DNA of 64,000 nucleotides, taken from the NCBI RefSeq assembly GCF_050320075.1, contig NZ_CP190018.1, one strand, 5' to 3'. Of the stretch, positions 3,034 through 42,815 are shown piece by piece. Numbering within the stretch: the stretch's first letter is position 1; the number at the start of each line of letters is the position of its first letter. The DNA is from Escherichia coli (GTDB lineage: Bacteria > Pseudomonadota > Gammaproteobacteria > Enterobacterales > Enterobacteriaceae). The notes under the pieces are model-generated. The model had not been told where the DNA came from, made no database searches, and saw only the letters and a program-made list of their open reading frames with translations. The position numbers and the translations under genes are program-made.

Positions 3034-3232
3034 GATATGGGGTTTTGGTCGTTGTTAATGAGCAGGACAATCATGACCGCCAACGACTGGATTCTCCCTT
3101 GGTTTATGTTTGTCAAAGCTCAGTGAAAATGTCTAATCACTGGCTCATTAGAAATGTCCATATGTTGAAAAGGCCGCTGCGAAAATCCCTCCCGCAACGG
3201 CCTCTTTAGCATAACGTCATTATGCGAACCAA

Positions 3233-4585
3233 TTATGGTTTGAGTTTATACTTCTGACCATTAATGATTTTTTTGATTAACTCGAATGCAGCGGGGGAAT
3301 ATTTATGAACACCTTCCTTCCCCGTTTTCACTAGCACATGATAGTTATTATCTGAGGATTTAATATTAAAACCAGTTTCCTTGTGTATTCTTTCTAATAC
3401 TTTATGGACGTAATGCCAAGATCCCATATCAAGTAATTTTGCAAGTTCAGATATGGTGTAGGGATAGCTTGCGTTAAGTGCTTGCCCATTATTTAACTCT
3501 GCAATTCCATAAAGTTTCGCTAACACGTTATCTTGCTCAGCAATGTTCTTAAGCATTTCAAAATCATATGGAAGCTCTTGTTTTACAAGAGATTGAGAGG
3601 CAAATGTATAGGTTCTGGCTAATAGCGCCCTGACTAATTTTGGGTTAACACTGATTTCTGGCGTATTTGACGATAGGGCATCATAAATCCAACCGAAATC
3701 ATTGGCATAGATCACTTTGATTCGGATGCTTTTATTTTCACCAACACCAATCAAAATCTCTTTCTGGTGTGAACCTGTACCTTCACATTCTGGACTAAAG
3801 GAAACCAAATAAATATTCGGAATCAAAGCGTTATTTGGCGCAATTATCTCATCAATATCAGACAGGATGGCTTTAATATTCTCATCATTAATACTATAGC
3901 CAATGAAGAACAACGGATGCTCGACGAAATATGTTAATAGTTTTGCACTGATATACTTTTTACGCTTATAAAACTCAACATAGTCTTCATTTGTTATAAT
4001 GATGCTTTCTGGTTCTTTACTACTGCCGTGAATCTTCATGATTTCACCGTATGTAGTATAGTTAACAGTCACAACATTATGGCCAACTATCGGTTGGTAG
4101 TTATCAAATATCTTTTCAAGCAGATCGTCATAGTTTGTTGTAATAATGGCATGGGGCCTTACTTTTTTTAACTTTTCAATTTCTTCAGTGTACTCCATTG
4201 CTGAAAAATCAACCGAGTCTGAAAGGTTATTCAACAATGTTGCAATCTCATGCTTGATATATATATCTTTAGAGCTTTTTCCATTGAAATACTGTTCAGG
4301 ATAACGAGATGTCCCCACATCCCAAGCCCACTCAGCGTATGACTCAGAAAAATCACTTGCTATCATTGGTTTATTGTCATTTCTTGTTTGACTGTAGTAA
4401 CCATACGGGCGAGTGATTAATGGGCAAGTTTCAGCGAGATACTTTAACAGGTTTTCCCAATCAGGAGCTTTCAAGTAGCGTTGAGATACCCCTGCACCCA
4501 TAAAGAGAATTGGCTGTACCTGTAAACCTTCAAGACATGATTTGATATCTTCAATTATTTCTGTCTGATATTCAGAGAAGTCCAT
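3233..4585 (-). CDS. SIR2-like (SIR2_2 / DHS-like NAD-binding fold) protein with uncharacterised C-terminal domain; candidate orphan defence NADase
   Basis: 450-aa ORF; N-terminal motifs PILFMGAGVSQ...PDWENLL, then ITTNYDDLLE and KIHGS resemble the defence-associated SIR2 family (ThsA-like/DSR-like); markedly low GC compared with flanks; function is inferred. Confidence 0.6.
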   Translation of the reverse strand: MDFSEYQTEIIEDIKSCLEGLQVQPILFMGAGVSQRYLKAPDWENLLKYLAETCPLITRPYGYYSQTRNDNKPMIASDFSESYAEWAWDVGTSRYPEQYFNGKSSKDIYIKHEIATLLNNLSDSVDFSAMEYTEEIEKLKKVRPHAIITTNYDDLLEKIFDNYQPIVGHNVVTVNYTTYGEIMKIHGSSKEPESIIITNEDYVEFYKRKKYISAKLLTYFVEHPLFFIGYSINDENIKAILSDIDEIIAPNNALIPNIYLVSFSPECEGTGSHQKEILIGVGENKSIRIKVIYANDFGWIYDALSSNTPEISVNPKLVRALLARTYTFASQSLVKQELPYDFEMLKNIAEQDNVLAKLYGIAELNNGQALNASYPYTISELAKLLDMGSWHYVHKVLERIHKETGFNIKSSDNNYHVLVKTGKEGVHKYSPAAFELIKKIINGQKYKLKP

Positions 4586-4799
4586 ACTTTAGCCTTTAGG
4601 ATGTGAGATGCTGGAGTAGTAAATCGCCGCGGAGCGGTTCGGGGTTCTGTGACACCCGAATTTTACCTCGGTTTCCTTTGTATATAATATCATTGAAGTT
4701 ATTTGCATTTCTCAGAAATCTTCTCTGGCTTTGATTGCTATAGCCGAAAGATAGCGCACACTTCGCCGTTGGTCAGTTAGTACGAGGTTTCCGCCAAGT

Positions 4800-5835
4800 T
4801 CACCTTTTACCAAAGATGGCCTCAGAGCTTCCCTGAAGCTTTATCATGGTTTCAAGTAGGTCATCTTCGTTCAGTGAGCGCTGAGATTTGTTGATGCTAG
4901 GCGCGTGCCGTCTGCGGGAAGGCTCATCACCAGAACAAGGTAACGATAGTGAGCGATTATTGTCCCGTTTTCTCTGGACCTGACGGGCAACATCCAACAC
5001 ATGGCCAAGTCTCTTGTTATCTACAATGGCGACGGGCTCAACCTCAGAAAGCCGGTCATAGGTGGAGTAGGGTAGCAGCACGCCATTTAGTCGCAGCTCC
5101 TTATGTCCGTCAGGATAATGCCAGACATCAATATACTTGCCGATGGCTCTTCGACTGTACTCGTTGTCCTCAATCAGATAGAGCATTTTATCGTATTGTA
5201 CAGTCAGATTTTTTGATACCCGGCGAGGCTCTCGCCAGGTAAATTCTGCATCAAGGTCATCGTCTAATGCCAGCGGCCGGTACGCGTTAAAATCATGCAA
5301 GGGTTCTTTGGCAAAGCGCCGGTTATAATCCGCCATGTATTCTTCTGCAAATGCATTGGCCGCTTCTATTGTACAGATCCCCTTAAGCCTGAGCTCCTTA
5401 ACGAGTCGGTCCTGAAGTGTCAAATGAGCACGTTCAACGCGGCCTTTTGCCTGGCTGGTTTCAGCACACAAAGGAGTAATATTAAGGCAGCGCATGGCCC
5501 TGGCAAACTGGGTATCGCCGAGACCGGTGGTGGCGTGCTTATTATTGACTCTGAATACGCTGGCTTTATCGCTGTAGAGGATCATCGGTTTACCGTATTC
5601 AGTGGTGGTCGCAGCCATCAATTTGTATCAGCTCGCCAGTACAAGGACGCCGGTAACGAGGCTGATGAATTTTCGGTGCGCGTTGTCTGCGGGGGATCCA
5701 GAGTCCCGCGTTTATCATGAGACGTCGGATGGTTTCCTTTCCAAGGACCAGACCGTGAACTTCCTCCAGCTTTTCCCGCGCCAGCGTGGGGCCAAAATCA
5801 CGGTAGTGCTCCCGGATTATACTGAGTGCCTCCAA
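4800..5835 (-). pseudogene. rve-type (integrase-core, DDE) transposase split by a frameshift; IS remnant
   Basis: Two overlapping ORFs in different frames (5599..5835 N-terminal part ending IQIDGCDHH; 4800..5621 C-terminal part with YSDKASVF and KGRVERAHLTL motifs) together resemble one IS481/ISNCY-like transposase; family assignment is tentative. Confidence 0.55.
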
Positions 5836-6198
5836 TGAGCCACAAATAGAACATTAGCATTGAGCCTCTATAATTTTGGTGCGCATAATGTATATTATGT
5901 TAAATGTGGTGGGTTTGTTCTTAAGTTCATGTGTTCCGCTCTTTCAGTAGCTTAACTGATGAATCAGTCAGCAGCTCTTGCCGTGCAAGCTACGCGGCGG
6001 TTCGTACCAGATTGGCCACCTCCATCTCCTGGTTCGCTTTCCCCTCCCCCCGGTAAACCTCACCCAACGTTAATTAATGATGTCAGTATGTGGGCGCTAT
6101 CCTTGTATGTAAAATCCACTGACGATTACGCCCATCTGTGAAAAAAAACTCACAATGCCATTCGATGCATCTCCATACTGAACGAGGCGTTATCGTCT

Positions 6199-9366: not shown

Positions 9367-10044
9367 ATGAAAATCATTTGCCTCGAAGAACATTATCTCG
9401 ACAGCGAGTTAGGGCGAGCGTGTATGCCTGTTGCGCTTGAGCAGGCACCTTTCCTTGGCGACAGGGGGAAAACCGTCGCTGATGGTCATAATCCTGACCG
9501 ACTCCCTGCTTTCCCGCTTTAATAAACTGAATGTGCCACTCTATCTTCATCCCGGGTTACCGCTTAAAAGCGTACAGCAGGCCTACTTCACGGGCTTCAG
9601 CGCAGAGGTCAACGCCAGGCTTTCTATGTTTGCCTGGGGCTGGCATCACGAAGCGGGGATCCATTTGTTGCGGCTGATGTTATCGGGCGCATTTGATAAA
9701 TATCCCAACCTGCAGGTAATCAGTGGCCACTGGGGGGAGATGTTACCCTTCTGGCTCCAGCGTCTTGATGACAGCCTACCACTGGCTGCAACGGGTCTGT
9801 CACGCACGCTAACGAGAACCTTCCAGGAACACGTTTACGTTACCCCGTCATATGCTAACACTGCCGCACTTCCAGTTTATCTACGCGTTAATGGGTGCTG
9901 AAAGGATCCTGTTCTCCGTCGGTTATCCCTATCAGACCCCTGGACGGTGTAAAAACCTTTATAGACAGTCTGCCCGTCAACAAGGCTGAAAAAGAGGCCA
10001 TCGCGTTTCGCAATGCAGAACGTTTACTGGGCATCACGGTTTAG
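9367..10044 (+). pseudogene. Amidohydrolase-2 family gene broken into three reading frames
   Basis: Starts MKIICLEEHY (frame 1, stops after about 50 codons), continues in the 9431..9901 ORF (HWGEMLPFW motif) and ends in a third frame (ILFSVGYPY ... AERLLGITV stop); at least two frameshifts. Confidence 0.6.
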
Positions 10045-23465: not shown

Positions 23466-24623
23466 ATGCACGTTACAGCCAAGCCCTCCAGTTTTCAATG
23501 TAATCTCAAATGTGATTACTGTTTTTACCTTGAAAAAGAGTCGCAGTTTACTCATGAAAAATGGATGGATGACAGCACTCTGAAAGAGTTCATCAAACAA
23601 TATATCGCAGCGTCTGGCAATCAGGTCTATTTTACCTGGCAAGGCGGTGAACCCACTCTGGCTGGCCTGGATTTTTTCCGTAAAGTTATTCACTATCAAC
23701 AACGCTATGCAGGCCAAAAACGTATTTTTAATGCATTACAAACGAATGGCATTTTATTGAATAATGAATGGTGTGCCTTTCTCAAAGAACATGAGTTTCT
23801 GGTTGGTATCTCGATCGATGGACCCCAGGAGCTACATGACCGTTACAGACGCAGTAATTCTGGTAACGGTACTTTTGCAAAAGTGATAGCAGCCATCGAG
23901 CGTCTGAAATCATATCAAGTAGAGTTTAATACGTTAACCGTCATTAATAACGTTAATGTCCATTACCCTCTTGAGGTTTATCATTTTTTAAAATCTATCG
24001 GCAGTAAACATATGCAATTTATCGAATTGCTCGAAACCGGGACGCCGAATATTGATTTCAGTGGTCATAGTGAGAACACATTCCGTATCATTGATTTTTC
24101 TGTGCCTCCTACGGCTTATGGCAAGTTTATGTCGACCATTTTTATGCAATGGGTTAAAAACGATGTGGGTGAAATTTTCATCCGTCAGTTTGAAAGTTTT
24201 GTCAGCCGTTTTTTGGGGAATGGGCATACCAGTTGTATTTTCCAGGAGTCCTGCAAGGATAATCTGGTTGTTGAAAGTAATGGAGACATTTACGAATGCG
24301 ACCATTTTGTCTATCCACAGTACAAAATTGGAAACATTAATAAATCTGAACTTAAAACGATGAACAGTGTACAACTGACAGCGCAAAAAAAACGGATTTC
24401 AGCGAAATGTCAGCAATGTGCATATAAACCTATCTGCAATGGCGGTTGCCCTAAGCATCGTATTACTAAAGTAAACAATGAGACTGTTTCCTATTTTTGC
24501 GAAGGTTATAAAATCCTTTTTTCAACCATGGTACCTTATATGAACGCCATGGTGGAGTTAGCCAAGAACAGAGTACCGCTTTACCACATTATGGATGTTG
24601 CAAAACAAATGGAGAATAATTAA
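23466..24623 (+). CDS. ydeM: Radical-SAM anaerobic sulfatase-maturating enzyme homologue
   Basis: CNLKCDYC radical-SAM cysteine motif near N-terminus plus C-terminal Cys cluster; 385 aa from ATG at 23466. Confidence 0.8.
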
Positions 24624-24914
24624 TAACGCTCCTTCTTTGCTCCAGTCTTAGCCTCCGTCTTATGACCTTAACAAAGCACCCGACATAAATTCCTGTTGGG
24701 TGTTTCGTCATAATCATCTTCCCTTGCGAAAATTCTGGCTTACGTGGCATGCGTCAGGGCATTAGCAATACCCTTGATTATCAATAGCATAACCGTAACC
24801 ATTGAAAATAAAAAAATTTCTTTATATTTCAAAATGTTAAATGACACTTAAATAAATTTCATCAGTAAATCATTGCCATAGATAATCATTGGATGGCACA
24901 ATCAATTTTCGCTA

Positions 24915-37129: not shown

Positions 37130-37467
37130 ATGGAGATGTATTTTAAAAGAATGAAAGATGAGTGGACCGGGCTTGTCGAACAAGCAGATCCGCTCATTCG
37201 TGCTAAAGCCGCGGAAATTGCCGTTGCGCATGCCCATTATCTGAGTATTGAGTTTTACCGAATTGTCCGTATCGACCCGCATGCCGAAGAATTCTTGAGT
37301 AATGAACAAGTTGAGCGGCAGTTGAAAAGTGCGATGGAACGCTGGATTATTAACGTGCTTTCTGCCCAGGTGGACGATGTCGAAAGGCTAATACAAATCC
37401 AGCATACCGTTGCGGAAGTGCATGCCCGCATAGGAATTCCGGTAGAAATTGTCGAGATGGGGTTTCG
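37130..37467 (+). pseudogene. dosC: dosC (diguanylate cyclase DosC/YddV) N-terminal globin-domain fragment truncated by IS1
   Basis: Product starts MEMYFKRMKDEWTGLVEQ and runs into the IS1 end at 37468 after about 113 codons. Confidence 0.8.
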
Positions 37468-38235
37468 GGTGATGCTGCCAACTTACTGATTTAGTGTATG
37501 ATGGTGTTTTTGAGGTGCTCCAGTGGCTTCTGTTTCTATCAGCTGTCCCTCCTGTTCAGCTACTGACGGGGTGGTGCGTAACGGCAAAAGCACCGCCGGA
37601 CATCAGCGCTATCTCTGCTCTCACTGCCGTAAAACATGGCAACTGCAGTTCACTTACACCGCTTCTCAACCCGGTACGCACCAGAAAATCATTGATATGG
37701 CCATGAATGGCGTTGGATGCCGGGCAACCGCCCGCATTATGGGCGTTGGCCTCAACACGATTTTCCGCCATTTAAAAAACTCAGGCCGCAGTCGGTAACC
37801 TCGCGCATACAGCCGGGCAGTGACGTCATCGTCTGCGCGGAAATGGACGAACAGTGGGGATACGTCGGGGCTAAATCGCGCCAGCGCTGGCTGTTTTACG
37901 CGTATGACAGGCTCCGGAAGACGGTTGTTGCGCACGTATTCGGTGAACGCACTCTGGCCACACTGGAGCGTCTTCTAAGCCTGCTGTCGGCCTTTGAGGT
38001 CGTGGTATGGATGACGGATGGCTGGCCGCTGTATGAATCCCGCCTGAAGGGAAAGCTGCACGTAATCAGCAAGCGTTACACTCAGCGAATTGAGCGGCAT
38101 AACCTGAATCTGAGACAACATCTGGCAAGGCTGGGACGGAAGTCACTGTCGTTCTCAAAATCGGTGGAGCTGCATGACAAGGTCATCGGGCATTATCTGA
38201 ACATAAAACACTATCAGTAAGTTGGAGTCATTACC
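37468..38235 (+). mobile_element. insAB: IS1 copy 2 (768 bp), insA 37523..37798 and insB 37717..38220 on plus strand
   Basis: Both terminal repeats read directly; A6C frameshift motif TTTAAAAAAC at about 37773; InsA/InsB identical to copy 1; no target duplication. Confidence 0.95.
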
Positions 38236-38430
38236 GAAAATTCAACAGCAGAACCCGCTCTGGTTAATGCCATTGAGCAAGGCCTTCGGGCAGAGCACGG
38301 TGTTGTCACTGAAGATGACATTCTCATGGAGCTGACCAAATGGGTGGAAGCTTCTGATAACGACATCCTCAGTGATATCTACCAGCAAACGATCAATTAT
38401 GTGGTCAGTGGCCAGCACCCTACGCTTTAA
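38236..38430 (+). pseudogene. bdm: bdm (biofilm-dependent modulation protein) C-terminal fragment
   Basis: Frame reading ...ENSTAEPALVNAIEQGLRAEHGVV...QHPTL-stop begins right at the IS1 boundary; N-terminus absent. Confidence 0.7.
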
Positions 38431-38531
38431 GGTGCTATGCTTGATCGGCAACCTAATTTAGGGGTTTAGCACGTGTTTCTTCGCTACGGCGATGTTGTCC
38501 TTAAAACTAGCAACAGGATTGAGGAGTTAAA

Positions 38532-38669
38532 ATGAAATCGAACCGTCAGGCACGTCATATTCTTGGACTGGACCATAAAATTTCTAACCAGCGCAAAATA
38601 GTTACCGAAGGTGACAAATCCAGCGTGGTAAATAACCCAACCGGCAGAAAACGCCCCGCTGAAAAGTAA
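38532..38669 (+). CDS. sra: Stationary-phase ribosome-associated protein Sra (45 aa)
   Basis: ATG at 38532 preceded by GAGGAG; translation [45 protein letters not shown]; below the ORF-track length cutoff. Confidence 0.85.
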
Positions 38670-38825
38670 TTCATAACCATCAGTCCTCAATGACGATTAA
38701 ACACCATTGCCTGCGCAATGGTGTTTTTGTTTTTATCTGCTTTATACTTGGGGCCGACGCCCTGGCGGTAAAGCAAAGACGATAAAAGCGTGCCAGGGTT
38801 GGATATTCAAAAAAGAGTGAGTGAC

Positions 38826-40523
38826 ATGGAACCAAAAACAAAAAAACAGCGTTCGCTTTATATTCCTTACGCTGGCCCTGTACTGCTGGAATTTCCGTTG
38901 TTGAATAAAGGCAGTGCCTTCAGCATGGAAGAACGCCGTAACTTCAACCTGCTGGGGTTACTGCCGGAAGTGGTCGAAACCATCGAAGAGCAAGCGGAAC
39001 GAGCATGGATCCAGTATCAGGGATTCAAAACCGAAATCGACAAACACATCTACCTGCGTAACATCCAGGACACTAACGAAACCCTCTTCTACCGTCTGGT
39101 AAACAATCATCTTGATGAGATGATGCCTGTTATTTATACCCCAACCGTTGGCGCAGCCTGTGAGCGTTTTTCTGAGATCTACCGCCGTTCACGCGGCGTG
39201 TTTATCTCTTACCAGAACCGCCACAATATGGACGATATTCTGCAAAACGTGCCGAACCATAATATTAAAGTGATTGTGGTGACTGACGGCGAACGTATTC
39301 TGGGGCTTGGTGACCAGGGCATCGGCGGGATGGGCATTCCGATCGGTAAACTGTCGCTCTATACCGCTTGTGGCGGCATCAGCCCAGCGTATACCCTTCC
39401 GGTGGTGCTGGATGTCGGGACGAATAACCAACAGCTGCTTAACGATCCGCTGTATATGGGCTGGCGTAATCCGCGTATCACTGACGACGAATACTATGAA
39501 TTCGTTGATGAATTTATCCAGGCTGTGAAACAACGCTGGCCGGACGTACTGTTGCAGTTTGAAGACTTCGCACAAAAAAATGCGATGCCGTTACTTAACC
39601 GCTATCGCAATGAAATTTGTTCTTTTAACGATGACATTCAGGGCACCGCGGCGGTAACGGTCGGCACACTGATCGCAGCCAGCCGCGCGGCAGGTGGTCA
39701 GTTAAGCGAGAAAAAAATCGTCTTCCTTGGCGCAGGTTCAGCGGGATGCGGCATTGCCGAAATGATCATTGCCCAGACTCAGCGCGAAGGATTAAGCGAG
39801 GAAACGGCGCGGCAGAAAGTCTTTATGGTCGATCGCTTTGGCCTGCTGACCGACAAGATGCCGAACCTGCTGCCTTTCCAGACCAAACTGGTGCAGAAAC
39901 GCGAAAACCTCAGTGACTGGGATACCGACAGCGATGTGCTGTCACTGCTGGATGTGGTGCGTAATGTAAAACCAGATATTCTGATTGGCGTCTCAGGACA
40001 GACCGGGCTGTTTACGGAAGAGATCATCCGTGAGATGCATAAACACTGTCCGCGTCCGATCGTGATGCCGTTGTCTAACCCGACTTCACGCGTGGAAGCC
40101 ACACCGCAGGACATTATCGCCTGGACTGAAGGTAACGCGCTGGTCGCCACTGGCAGTCCGTTTAACCCAGTGGTATGGAAAGATAAAATCTACCCTATCG
40201 CCCAGTGTAACAACGCCTTTATTTTCCCGGGCATCGGGCTGGGCGTTATTGCTTCCGGCGCGTCACGTATCACCGATGAGATGCTGATGTCGGCAAGTGA
40301 AACGCTTGCTCAGTATTCGCCACTGGTGCTGAACGGCGAAGGTCTGGTACTGCCGGAACTGAAAGATATTCAGAAAGTCTCCCGCGCAATTGCCTTTGCG
40401 GTTGGCAAAATGGCGCAGCAGCAAGGCGTGGCGGTGAAAACCTCCGCCGAAGCTCTGCAACAGGCCATTGATGATAATTTCTGGCAAGCCGAATACCGCG
40501 ACTACCGCCGTACCTCCATCTAA
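38826..40523 (+). CDS. maeA: NAD-dependent malic enzyme
   Basis: 565 aa from [17 protein letters not shown]; malic-enzyme motifs. Confidence 0.95.
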
Positions 40524-42100: not shown

Positions 42101-42815
42101 AAATGCGCCTGTAAGGCTCTGTTACCAGCCGCGCCCTAACAGGCGCATACGATCTGACATTTGCATTCAACTTCGTTACTTACGGCCCGTAAACGGGCTG
42201 CCCGGATATGGAATCGATAACTGCTCCCCCATTTTATCCTCTTCAAGCTGGTGCTTTATGTAGTCCTGTATCTTCGCCGTGTTCTTACCCACCGTATCGA
42301 CATAGTACCCTCGGCACCAGAACTCCCTGTTTCTGTATTTGAATTTCAAATCCCCAAACTGCTCGTAAAGCATCAGACTGCTTTTCCCTTTCAGATATCC
42401 CATAAAGCCGGATACGCTCATTTTGGGTGGGATTTCCACAAGCATATGGATATGATCTGCGCAGCACTCTGCTTCCAGAATCCGTACGCTTTTCCACTCA
42501 CACAGCTTTCTCAAAATACTGCCTATCGCCCTACGCTTCTCTCCGTAAAACGCCAGTCTTCGGTATTTCGGCGCAAAAACTATGTGATATTTACAGTTCC
42601 AGCGGGTGTGCGCTAAGCTCTTTTCGTCCCCCATTGGGACCCCCTTTTGATTTCTTGTTTGACACTTGCAGTTGCCAGACCGCAAGGTGTTTTAACAAAT
42701 CAAAAGGGGTTTTAATAACTGGCTCAAAGCTGAAAGCTTTCCGGAACCCCCAGCCTAGCTGGGGGTTTTCTGTGCACAAAAAAAATGGCGCTTCTTAAAG
42801 CGCCATTTTCAGCTT
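42100..42815 (-). mobile_element. tnpA: IS200-like element (IS200/IS605 family) with Y1 transposase tnpA 42176..42634
   Basis: TnpA starting MGDEKSLAHTRWNCKYHIVFAPKYRR with HIHMLVEIPPK (HUH) motif; element boundaries approximate, set by the flanking terminators. Confidence 0.8.

Follow-up and report, generated by a model that had tools for sequence, protein, structure and literature searches.

Intact sra gene beside an IS1-truncated bdm and a 10.5-kb deletion in an Escherichia coli genome

Upstream of maeA in an Escherichia coli genome lies a reading frame of only 45 codons with an insertion sequence a short distance in front of it. The locus raises the question whether this frame is a genuine gene and, if so, how it would be expressed with its upstream surroundings rearranged. 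It was studied within a stretch of 64,000 nucleotides (NCBI RefSeq assembly GCF_050320075.1, contig NZ_CP190018.1), which is referred to as the window in the following. ORF finding in the window gave a frame at 38532..38669 on the + strand that begins with ATG and comprises 45 codons and a TAA stop. An earlier note, made from the sequence of the window, had taken it for a 45-codon sra gene situated between a remnant of bdm and maeA. The gene and the elements in its immediate vicinity are the following.

38532..38669, + strand: sra (rpsV, protein D, formerly 30S protein S22), assigned by PF08136, NF007473 and identity to K-12 b1480
38521..38526, + strand: Shine-Dalgarno sequence GAGGAG with a 5-nt spacer to the sra ATG
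38495..38531, + strand: nearly invariant upstream block TTGTCCTTAAAACTAGCAACAGGATTGAGGAGTTAAA, found in the six-locus alignment
38699..38736, + strand: intrinsic terminator of sra with a 12-bp stem and a 4-nt loop, then TTGTTTTTAT, found in the terminator scan
38826..40523, + strand: maeA (NAD-dependent malic enzyme), which follows sra and has a start of its own

The encoded protein was compared with Sra of E. coli K-12 MG1655 (b1480) and was identical in 45/45 residues. The alignment of the translation with Sra, on which the earlier note had let its identification depend, was thereby carried out and ended in 100% identity. On the DNA level, the two genes differ in one base at position 38627, and this difference is synonymous. 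The Pfam family PF08136 (SRA_like, "Ribosome hibernation factor SRA") matched the protein with an E-value of 2.6e-31 and 108.2 bits (cutoff 25), with residues 1-44 of Sra aligned to positions 1-46 of the 46 profile positions. The NCBIfam equivalog NF007473 was matched with 74.5 bits (cutoff 35). The DNA from the right end of IS1 to maeA is identical in two RefSeq genomes in which sra is annotated (WP_000841554.1). Apart from the protein itself, the K-12 locus shares bdm and maeA as neighbours, the Shine-Dalgarno sequence as well as the candidate -10 element described below, and its flanks show scattered substitutions only. Sra of the window has 45 amino acids, a mass of 5095.8 Da, a pI of 11.04 and a net charge of +7 with 11 Lys and Arg vs 4 Asp and Glu residues. 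The presence of sra, as the earlier note had it, is thus borne out by the identity to K-12 and by both family models. The frame at 38532..38669 is an intact and ordinary sra orthologue, and there is no argument against this identification.

The ribosome-binding site of sra had also been described as strong, and rightly so, as GAGGAG with its 5-nt spacer is predicted to form a duplex of -8.8 kcal/mol with the 3' end of the 16S rRNA (anti-Shine-Dalgarno). Six loci were aligned, namely, those of E. coli, Salmonella, Citrobacter, E. albertii, Intestinirhabdus and one metagenomic locus. AGGAG was invariant in all six and the full GAGGAG was present in five, the Citrobacter locus having AAGGAG. The final ∼40 nt in front of the sra ATG are nearly invariant in 6/6 loci, and the block at 38495..38531 may represent the 5' leader and/or the proximal promoter. 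On the other side of the gene, the terminator hairpin (38699..38726) starts 30 nt past the sra stop. Its RNA fold was calculated with -20.1 kcal/mol (z -4.4), a stability that 0 of 200 shuffled sequences reached.

A database search yielded 66 relatives of Sra, 65 of them with a precomputed PF08136 match and one short partial sequence without it. The named relatives belong to Escherichia, Shigella, Citrobacter, Salmonella and Intestinirhabdus. This restriction to Enterobacteriaceae agrees with the description of Sra as a young protein confined to this family (preprint, bioRxiv 10.1101/2025.11.04.686544). Across 14 orthologues, residues 1-9, L11, G12, S18-Q20, K22 and G38-R39 were invariant. For codons 1-35, pN/pS amounted to 0.15 against Salmonella, 0.10 against Citrobacter and 0.17 against Intestinirhabdus with pS at ∼0.5. 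Judged by these comparisons of sequence, sra is under purifying selection. The order osmC (- strand), bdm, sra and maeA is kept in Salmonella, Intestinirhabdus and the E. coli references. In Citrobacter sp. Cm038 and E. albertii, the order is osmC, sra and maeA, and no bdm was called between osmC and sra. In E. albertii, bdm persists as a natural 3' remnant only and sra is intact together with the conserved upstream block; in Citrobacter sp. Cm038, sra is likewise intact and the block is kept. In the window, the bdm remnant is found 5' and maeA 3' of sra as the earlier note had stated, and osmC is deleted.

Tight binding to the 30S subunit has been reported for Sra of K-12, which was originally regarded as a ribosomal protein (S22, rpsV) (PMC10502375; 30S binding also PMC9959377). 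In stationary phase, its level rises from ∼640 to ∼5,850 copies per cell, which is an approx. 9-fold increase (PMC11102965), and its copy number then exceeds that of the ribosomal protein uS2 according to the literature, where Sra is counted as a putative ribosome hibernation factor. It is found on ribosomes in early stationary phase and appears and disappears with RMF (PMC9959377). The distribution of ribosome states is not altered by Sra (PMC10746276). RMF, HPF and RaiA resemble Sra as they are small, induced in stationary phase and bound to the ribosome. In exponentially growing cells, CsrA acts as a repressor of the genes of RMF, RaiA and Sra, indirectly in the case of sra, while hpf fusions were unaffected by CsrA (PMC10746276). 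However, Sra has no sequence relationship to RMF, HPF or RaiA, is without a solved structure and is found in Enterobacteriaceae only, while for the other three the binding sites and the effects (100S formation, blockage of the A/P sites) are known.

In a phmmer search of 177,635 distinct PDB sequences, no chain matched Sra at E ≤ 1, and thus no structural mechanism can be cited. An AlphaFold2 model calculated from a 14-sequence alignment was of low confidence (pLDDT 64, pTM 0.28) with a short helix at residues 4-11. Very short and highly basic peptides bound to the 30S subunit are also represented by bS22 of mycobacteria and Bacteroidetes and by Thx of Thermus, and Sra and bS22 share the historical label 'S22'. 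Ribosome structures containing bS22 and Thx are presumably among the PDB entries that were searched. Still, Sra has no detectable sequence similarity to bS22, Thx or bS21 (0 PDB matches at E ≤ 1), and the resemblance is one of analogy and not of membership. Sra may be pictured as a basic peptide that would be disordered when free and would become ordered on the 16S rRNA, where it could help to stabilise or silence idle 30S/70S particles alongside RMF.

The DNA upstream of sra differs from that of K-12 and contains the following features.

37130..37467, + strand: truncated dosC with its first ∼113 codons, the ORF continuing into IS1 to 37489
37468..38235, + strand: IS1 of 768 bp with insA (37523..37798) and insB (to 38220 by programmed frameshift), reading towards sra
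38236..38430, + strand: bdm remnant with codons 8-71 of 71 and the stop (38428..38430), assigned by PF10684 and NF008515

Both family models match the bdm remnant at profile positions 7-71 of 71, in agreement with the earlier note, which had recognised it as such. The junction with the right end of IS1 maps after bdm codon 7 (bdm codon 7/8). The left junction is located at 37467|37468, where dosC codon ∼113 is joined directly to the left end of IS1. Further to the left, digH precedes the dosC stub, and neither osmC nor the 5' end of bdm is present on this side. In comparison with the intact reference CFSAN061763, 10,543 bp are absent, comprising the 3' two-thirds of dosC, dosP, ddpXABCDF, osmC, the bdm promoter and bdm codons 1-7. 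The K-12 locus, in contrast, has bdm with its promoter intact and osmC, ddp and dosCP upstream, while in the window bdm is truncated by IS1 and ∼10.5 kb are gone.

The origin of this arrangement is illustrated by E. coli YZLc1-3 (NZ_CP123240.1), which shows 0 mismatches to the window over 37,467 + 26,533 bases when the deletion is set aside. YZLc1-3 carries an IS1 at the same bdm site (annotated as IS1 family transposase) that is identical in 768/768 positions and has the identical right junction in bdm. There, the element is flanked on both sides by the 8-bp target duplication GAAAATTC, and osmC, ddpXABCDF, dosP and a full-length dosC are retained. YZLc1-3 thus represents a simple bdm::IS1 insertion with duplication, whereas the window has the same junction on the right side and a deletion on the left. 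No target duplication was found at the IS1 of the window, where the left flank is dosC ending in ...GGGGTTTCG and the right flank begins with GAAAATTC... A simple insertion was rejected for the window due to the missing direct duplication of 8-9 bp at the 768-bp element. The absence of the duplication on the left and its presence in YZLc1-3 fit an adjacent deletion that occurred after the insertion. In the simplest history suggested by these sequences, IS1 would first have inserted into bdm codon 7/8 and would then have mediated an adjacent deletion that extended leftwards into dosC. A misassembly is unlikely to have caused the deletion, as the junction lies exactly at the terminal base of IS1 and dosC of YZLc1-3 contains no IS1.

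The full dosC'-IS1-'bdm arrangement was found in 0 of 5,426 complete E. coli genomes. Three genomes appeared as candidates for the dosC'-IS1 junction, which turned out to be joined matches of non-adjacent sequences and were rejected. The best of them, STEC276, has a simple IS1 insertion elsewhere in dosC; in the other two, the matches span 474 and 732 bp for a query of 240 bases. IS1 adjoins bdm-sra in 25 genomes. Two of these were inspected besides YZLc1-3, and E. coli WCHEC050613 and C1 carry independent IS1B insertions at two other osmC-bdm intergenic sites with bdm intact. Accordingly, the osmC-bdm area has been hit by IS1 repeatedly. One of the two IS1B insertions reaches to within ∼30 bp of the bdm ATG and is expected to disconnect the bdm promoter as well. 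Two more copies of IS1 in the window were inferred from the annotation of the base-identical YZLc1-3, one at ∼15499..16196 (- strand) that interrupts a fimbrial usher/subunit cluster and one at ∼48172..48869 (- strand) that splits yddG.

Regarding the frame of the bdm remnant, the TAA stop of insB (38218..38220) is in frame with it and is the only stop between them. The first canonical start in this frame is ATG 38326, which would give 34 aa. The 66-aa 'bdm' CDS annotated by RefSeq in YZLc1-3 starts at an ATT (window position 38230) inside the right end of IS1 and is probably an annotation artefact.

Concerning expression, transcription of sra normally has two sources, its own promoter and the bdm promoter upstream (PMC10746276). 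An intact bdm promoter and the bdm start were searched for 5' of sra in the window and are absent. As IS1 truncates bdm and ∼10.5 kb are deleted, the bdm-sra operon transcript cannot be made, and with the bdm promoter removed, the expression of sra must depend on its own promoter. Between IS1 and the sra ATG, 296 bp of native DNA are retained, which are identical to both RefSeq references; 4 positions deviate from K-12, all of them outside the candidate -10. This region contains the element below.

38433..38444, + strand: candidate promoter of sra itself, an extended sigma-S-type -10 TGcTATGCTTGA just after the bdm stop codon

The candidate -10 (38434..38444) is located 98 nt upstream of the sra ATG and fits KCTAYRCTTAA, which we take to be the sigma-S -10 consensus from published sigma-S promoter analyses, at 10/11 positions. 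With up to one mismatch allowed, this consensus had a single match in 128,000 window positions, and 0.002 matches would be expected in the retained 296 nt. Either TGCTATGCT or TGCTAAGCT is conserved at this position in five of the six aligned loci, the Citrobacter locus being without it. Judging from the motif, its conservation and the retained upstream DNA, the own promoter of sra is most likely positioned at 38434..38444, and sra is most likely still expressed in this strain from its own stationary-phase promoter. The sigma-S-type -10 would drive transcription, possibly with some read-through from dosC'/IS1.

Whether the deletion has changed the regulation of sra is a further question. The gene is now located downstream of, and in the same orientation as, the dosC promoter, the dosC' stub and IS1. 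It is conceivable, though we consider it rather unlikely, that the IS1 deletion has rewired sra in such a way that its levels could be governed by its own sigma-S-type promoter alone or by new read-through from dosC'/IS1. There is also a low probability that sra, although its sequence is intact, is in effect silent in the strain and decaying into a pseudogene. The deletion has taken away bdm codons 1-7 and the bdm promoter, from which sra is normally transcribed as well, a polar IS1 is situated 296 bp in front of the gene, and a scan for sigma-70 promoters between IS1 and sra found none matching the consensus. However, sra has a reported promoter of its own (PMC10746276), and the retained upstream DNA equals that of the intact references, with no K-12 difference touching the candidate -10. 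The latter is unique in the window, nearly perfect as a sigma-S-type element and conserved across genera. Furthermore, sra has stayed under constraint in E. albertii and Citrobacter, neither of which has an intact bdm, and the coding sequence in the window shows no lesion. Taken as a whole, we are highly confident that the locus is best explained by an intact sra encoding a basic peptide that would act on the ribosome and be expressed from its own promoter after the IS1 deletion.

As the earlier note had pointed out, sra was absent from the ORF list of the window owing to its size, as a protein of 45 aa is invisible at a cutoff of 60 aa. Among ORFs of at least 60 aa, those that overlap this part of the window (sra with the bdm remnant) are maeA and the two antisense frames below.

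38484..38690, - strand: antisense shadow ORF of 68 aa opposite sra
38242..38451, - strand: antisense shadow ORF of 69 aa opposite the bdm remnant

The window contains 142 ORFs of 45-59 aa, and therefore a length of 45 codons alone is not beyond chance. Instead, sra is judged real on the basis of homology, its translation and termination signals, synteny and purifying selection. That 38532..38669 is a chance frame, or that the real gene is the 68-aa antisense ORF, has a negligible probability: frames of this length are numerous and no stop interrupts the antisense frame in the window or in three orthologous loci, but the sense frame matches curated families (E 2.6e-31) under purifying selection, and the antisense frame is broken by 3 stops in E. 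albertii and by 1 in the metagenomic locus, begins with TTG without a Shine-Dalgarno sequence (upstream GCAATGGTGTTTAATCGTCA) and would have its start in the stretch that separates the sra stop codon from the terminator hairpin. The 68-aa antisense ORF is thus considered a shadow ORF and sra the gene at this position.

The same cutoff conceals a second small protein, in line with the remark of the earlier note that small proteins of the window escape a 60-aa cutoff.

24589..24711, - strand: YneP, 40 aa, assigned by PF23696 (E 2e-29)

In the RefSeq annotation of YZLc1-3, the ORF of YneP is listed as 'hypothetical protein' only, and it runs antisense to ydeM, whose 3' end it overlaps.

Further small proteins had been suspected around the SIR2 islet, a suggestion that did not hold. 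ORF finding was repeated with a 20-aa cutoff over 3034..3232, 4586..4799 and 5836..6198 and gave 18 ORFs, none of them with a ribosome-binding site close in strength to the Shine-Dalgarno of sra. The best scores in the three intervals were -5.6 and -5.8 kcal/mol vs -8.8 kcal/mol for sra, and both were located over the ISNCY transposase pseudogene. No Pfam match was obtained for the 8 of the 18 ORFs that were scanned, including the longest inside each interval, and none of the three intervals contains a CDS in the closest annotated genome. Hence, with weak ribosome-binding sites, no Pfam match and no CDS, the ORFs in these intervals were rejected as small genes. The islet itself (3233..5808) comprises a 450-aa SIR2-family gene (3233..4585, - strand) in a patch of low GC (0.35-0.39), with hipBA on one side and a frameshifted ISNCY transposase remnant (4800..5808) on the other. 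Many E. coli genomes contain the islet with 100% identity.

A 51-aa 'hypothetical protein' CDS (WP_023063624.1, 9367..9522, + strand) gave no Pfam match, and 41 nt of it are shared with the beginning of a short 'amidohydrolase family protein' CDS (9482..9901). It resembles a piece left from a disrupted gene more than a true small protein. Rfam matches in the window were restricted to two, namely, STnc490 at 42644..42767 (- strand, 146 bits), which adjoins an IS200/IS605 tnpA, and a SECIS element at 46781..46839 (- strand, 84 bits) inside fdnG. The latter accounts for the split ORF of fdnG that ends at 46785.

The gene itself is a textbook one: sra has been named since 2001 and is annotated by standard pipelines in essentially every E. 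coli genome. The additions made here are the 10.5-kb IS1-mediated deletion and the YneP call. The value of the sra case is methodological, and it carries little weight as a discovery. A cutoff of 60 aa hides sra (45 aa) and YneP (40 aa) and displays antisense shadow ORFs of 68 and 69 aa in their place; lowering the cutoff alone would add ∼140 chance ORFs of 45-59 aa, so that evidence from homology, ribosome-binding sites and conservation is needed. For the strain, the deletion removes dosCP, ddp, osmC and the bdm promoter, which is relevant when its biofilm, c-di-GMP and stress phenotypes are read. The strain is thus also devoid of OsmC, the DosC/DosP module of c-di-GMP turnover and the Ddp system for D-Ala-D-Ala, and if the rewiring of sra were true, it would join E. 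albertii and Citrobacter, both naturally without an intact bdm, as an experiment of nature on the reason for the two promoters of sra.
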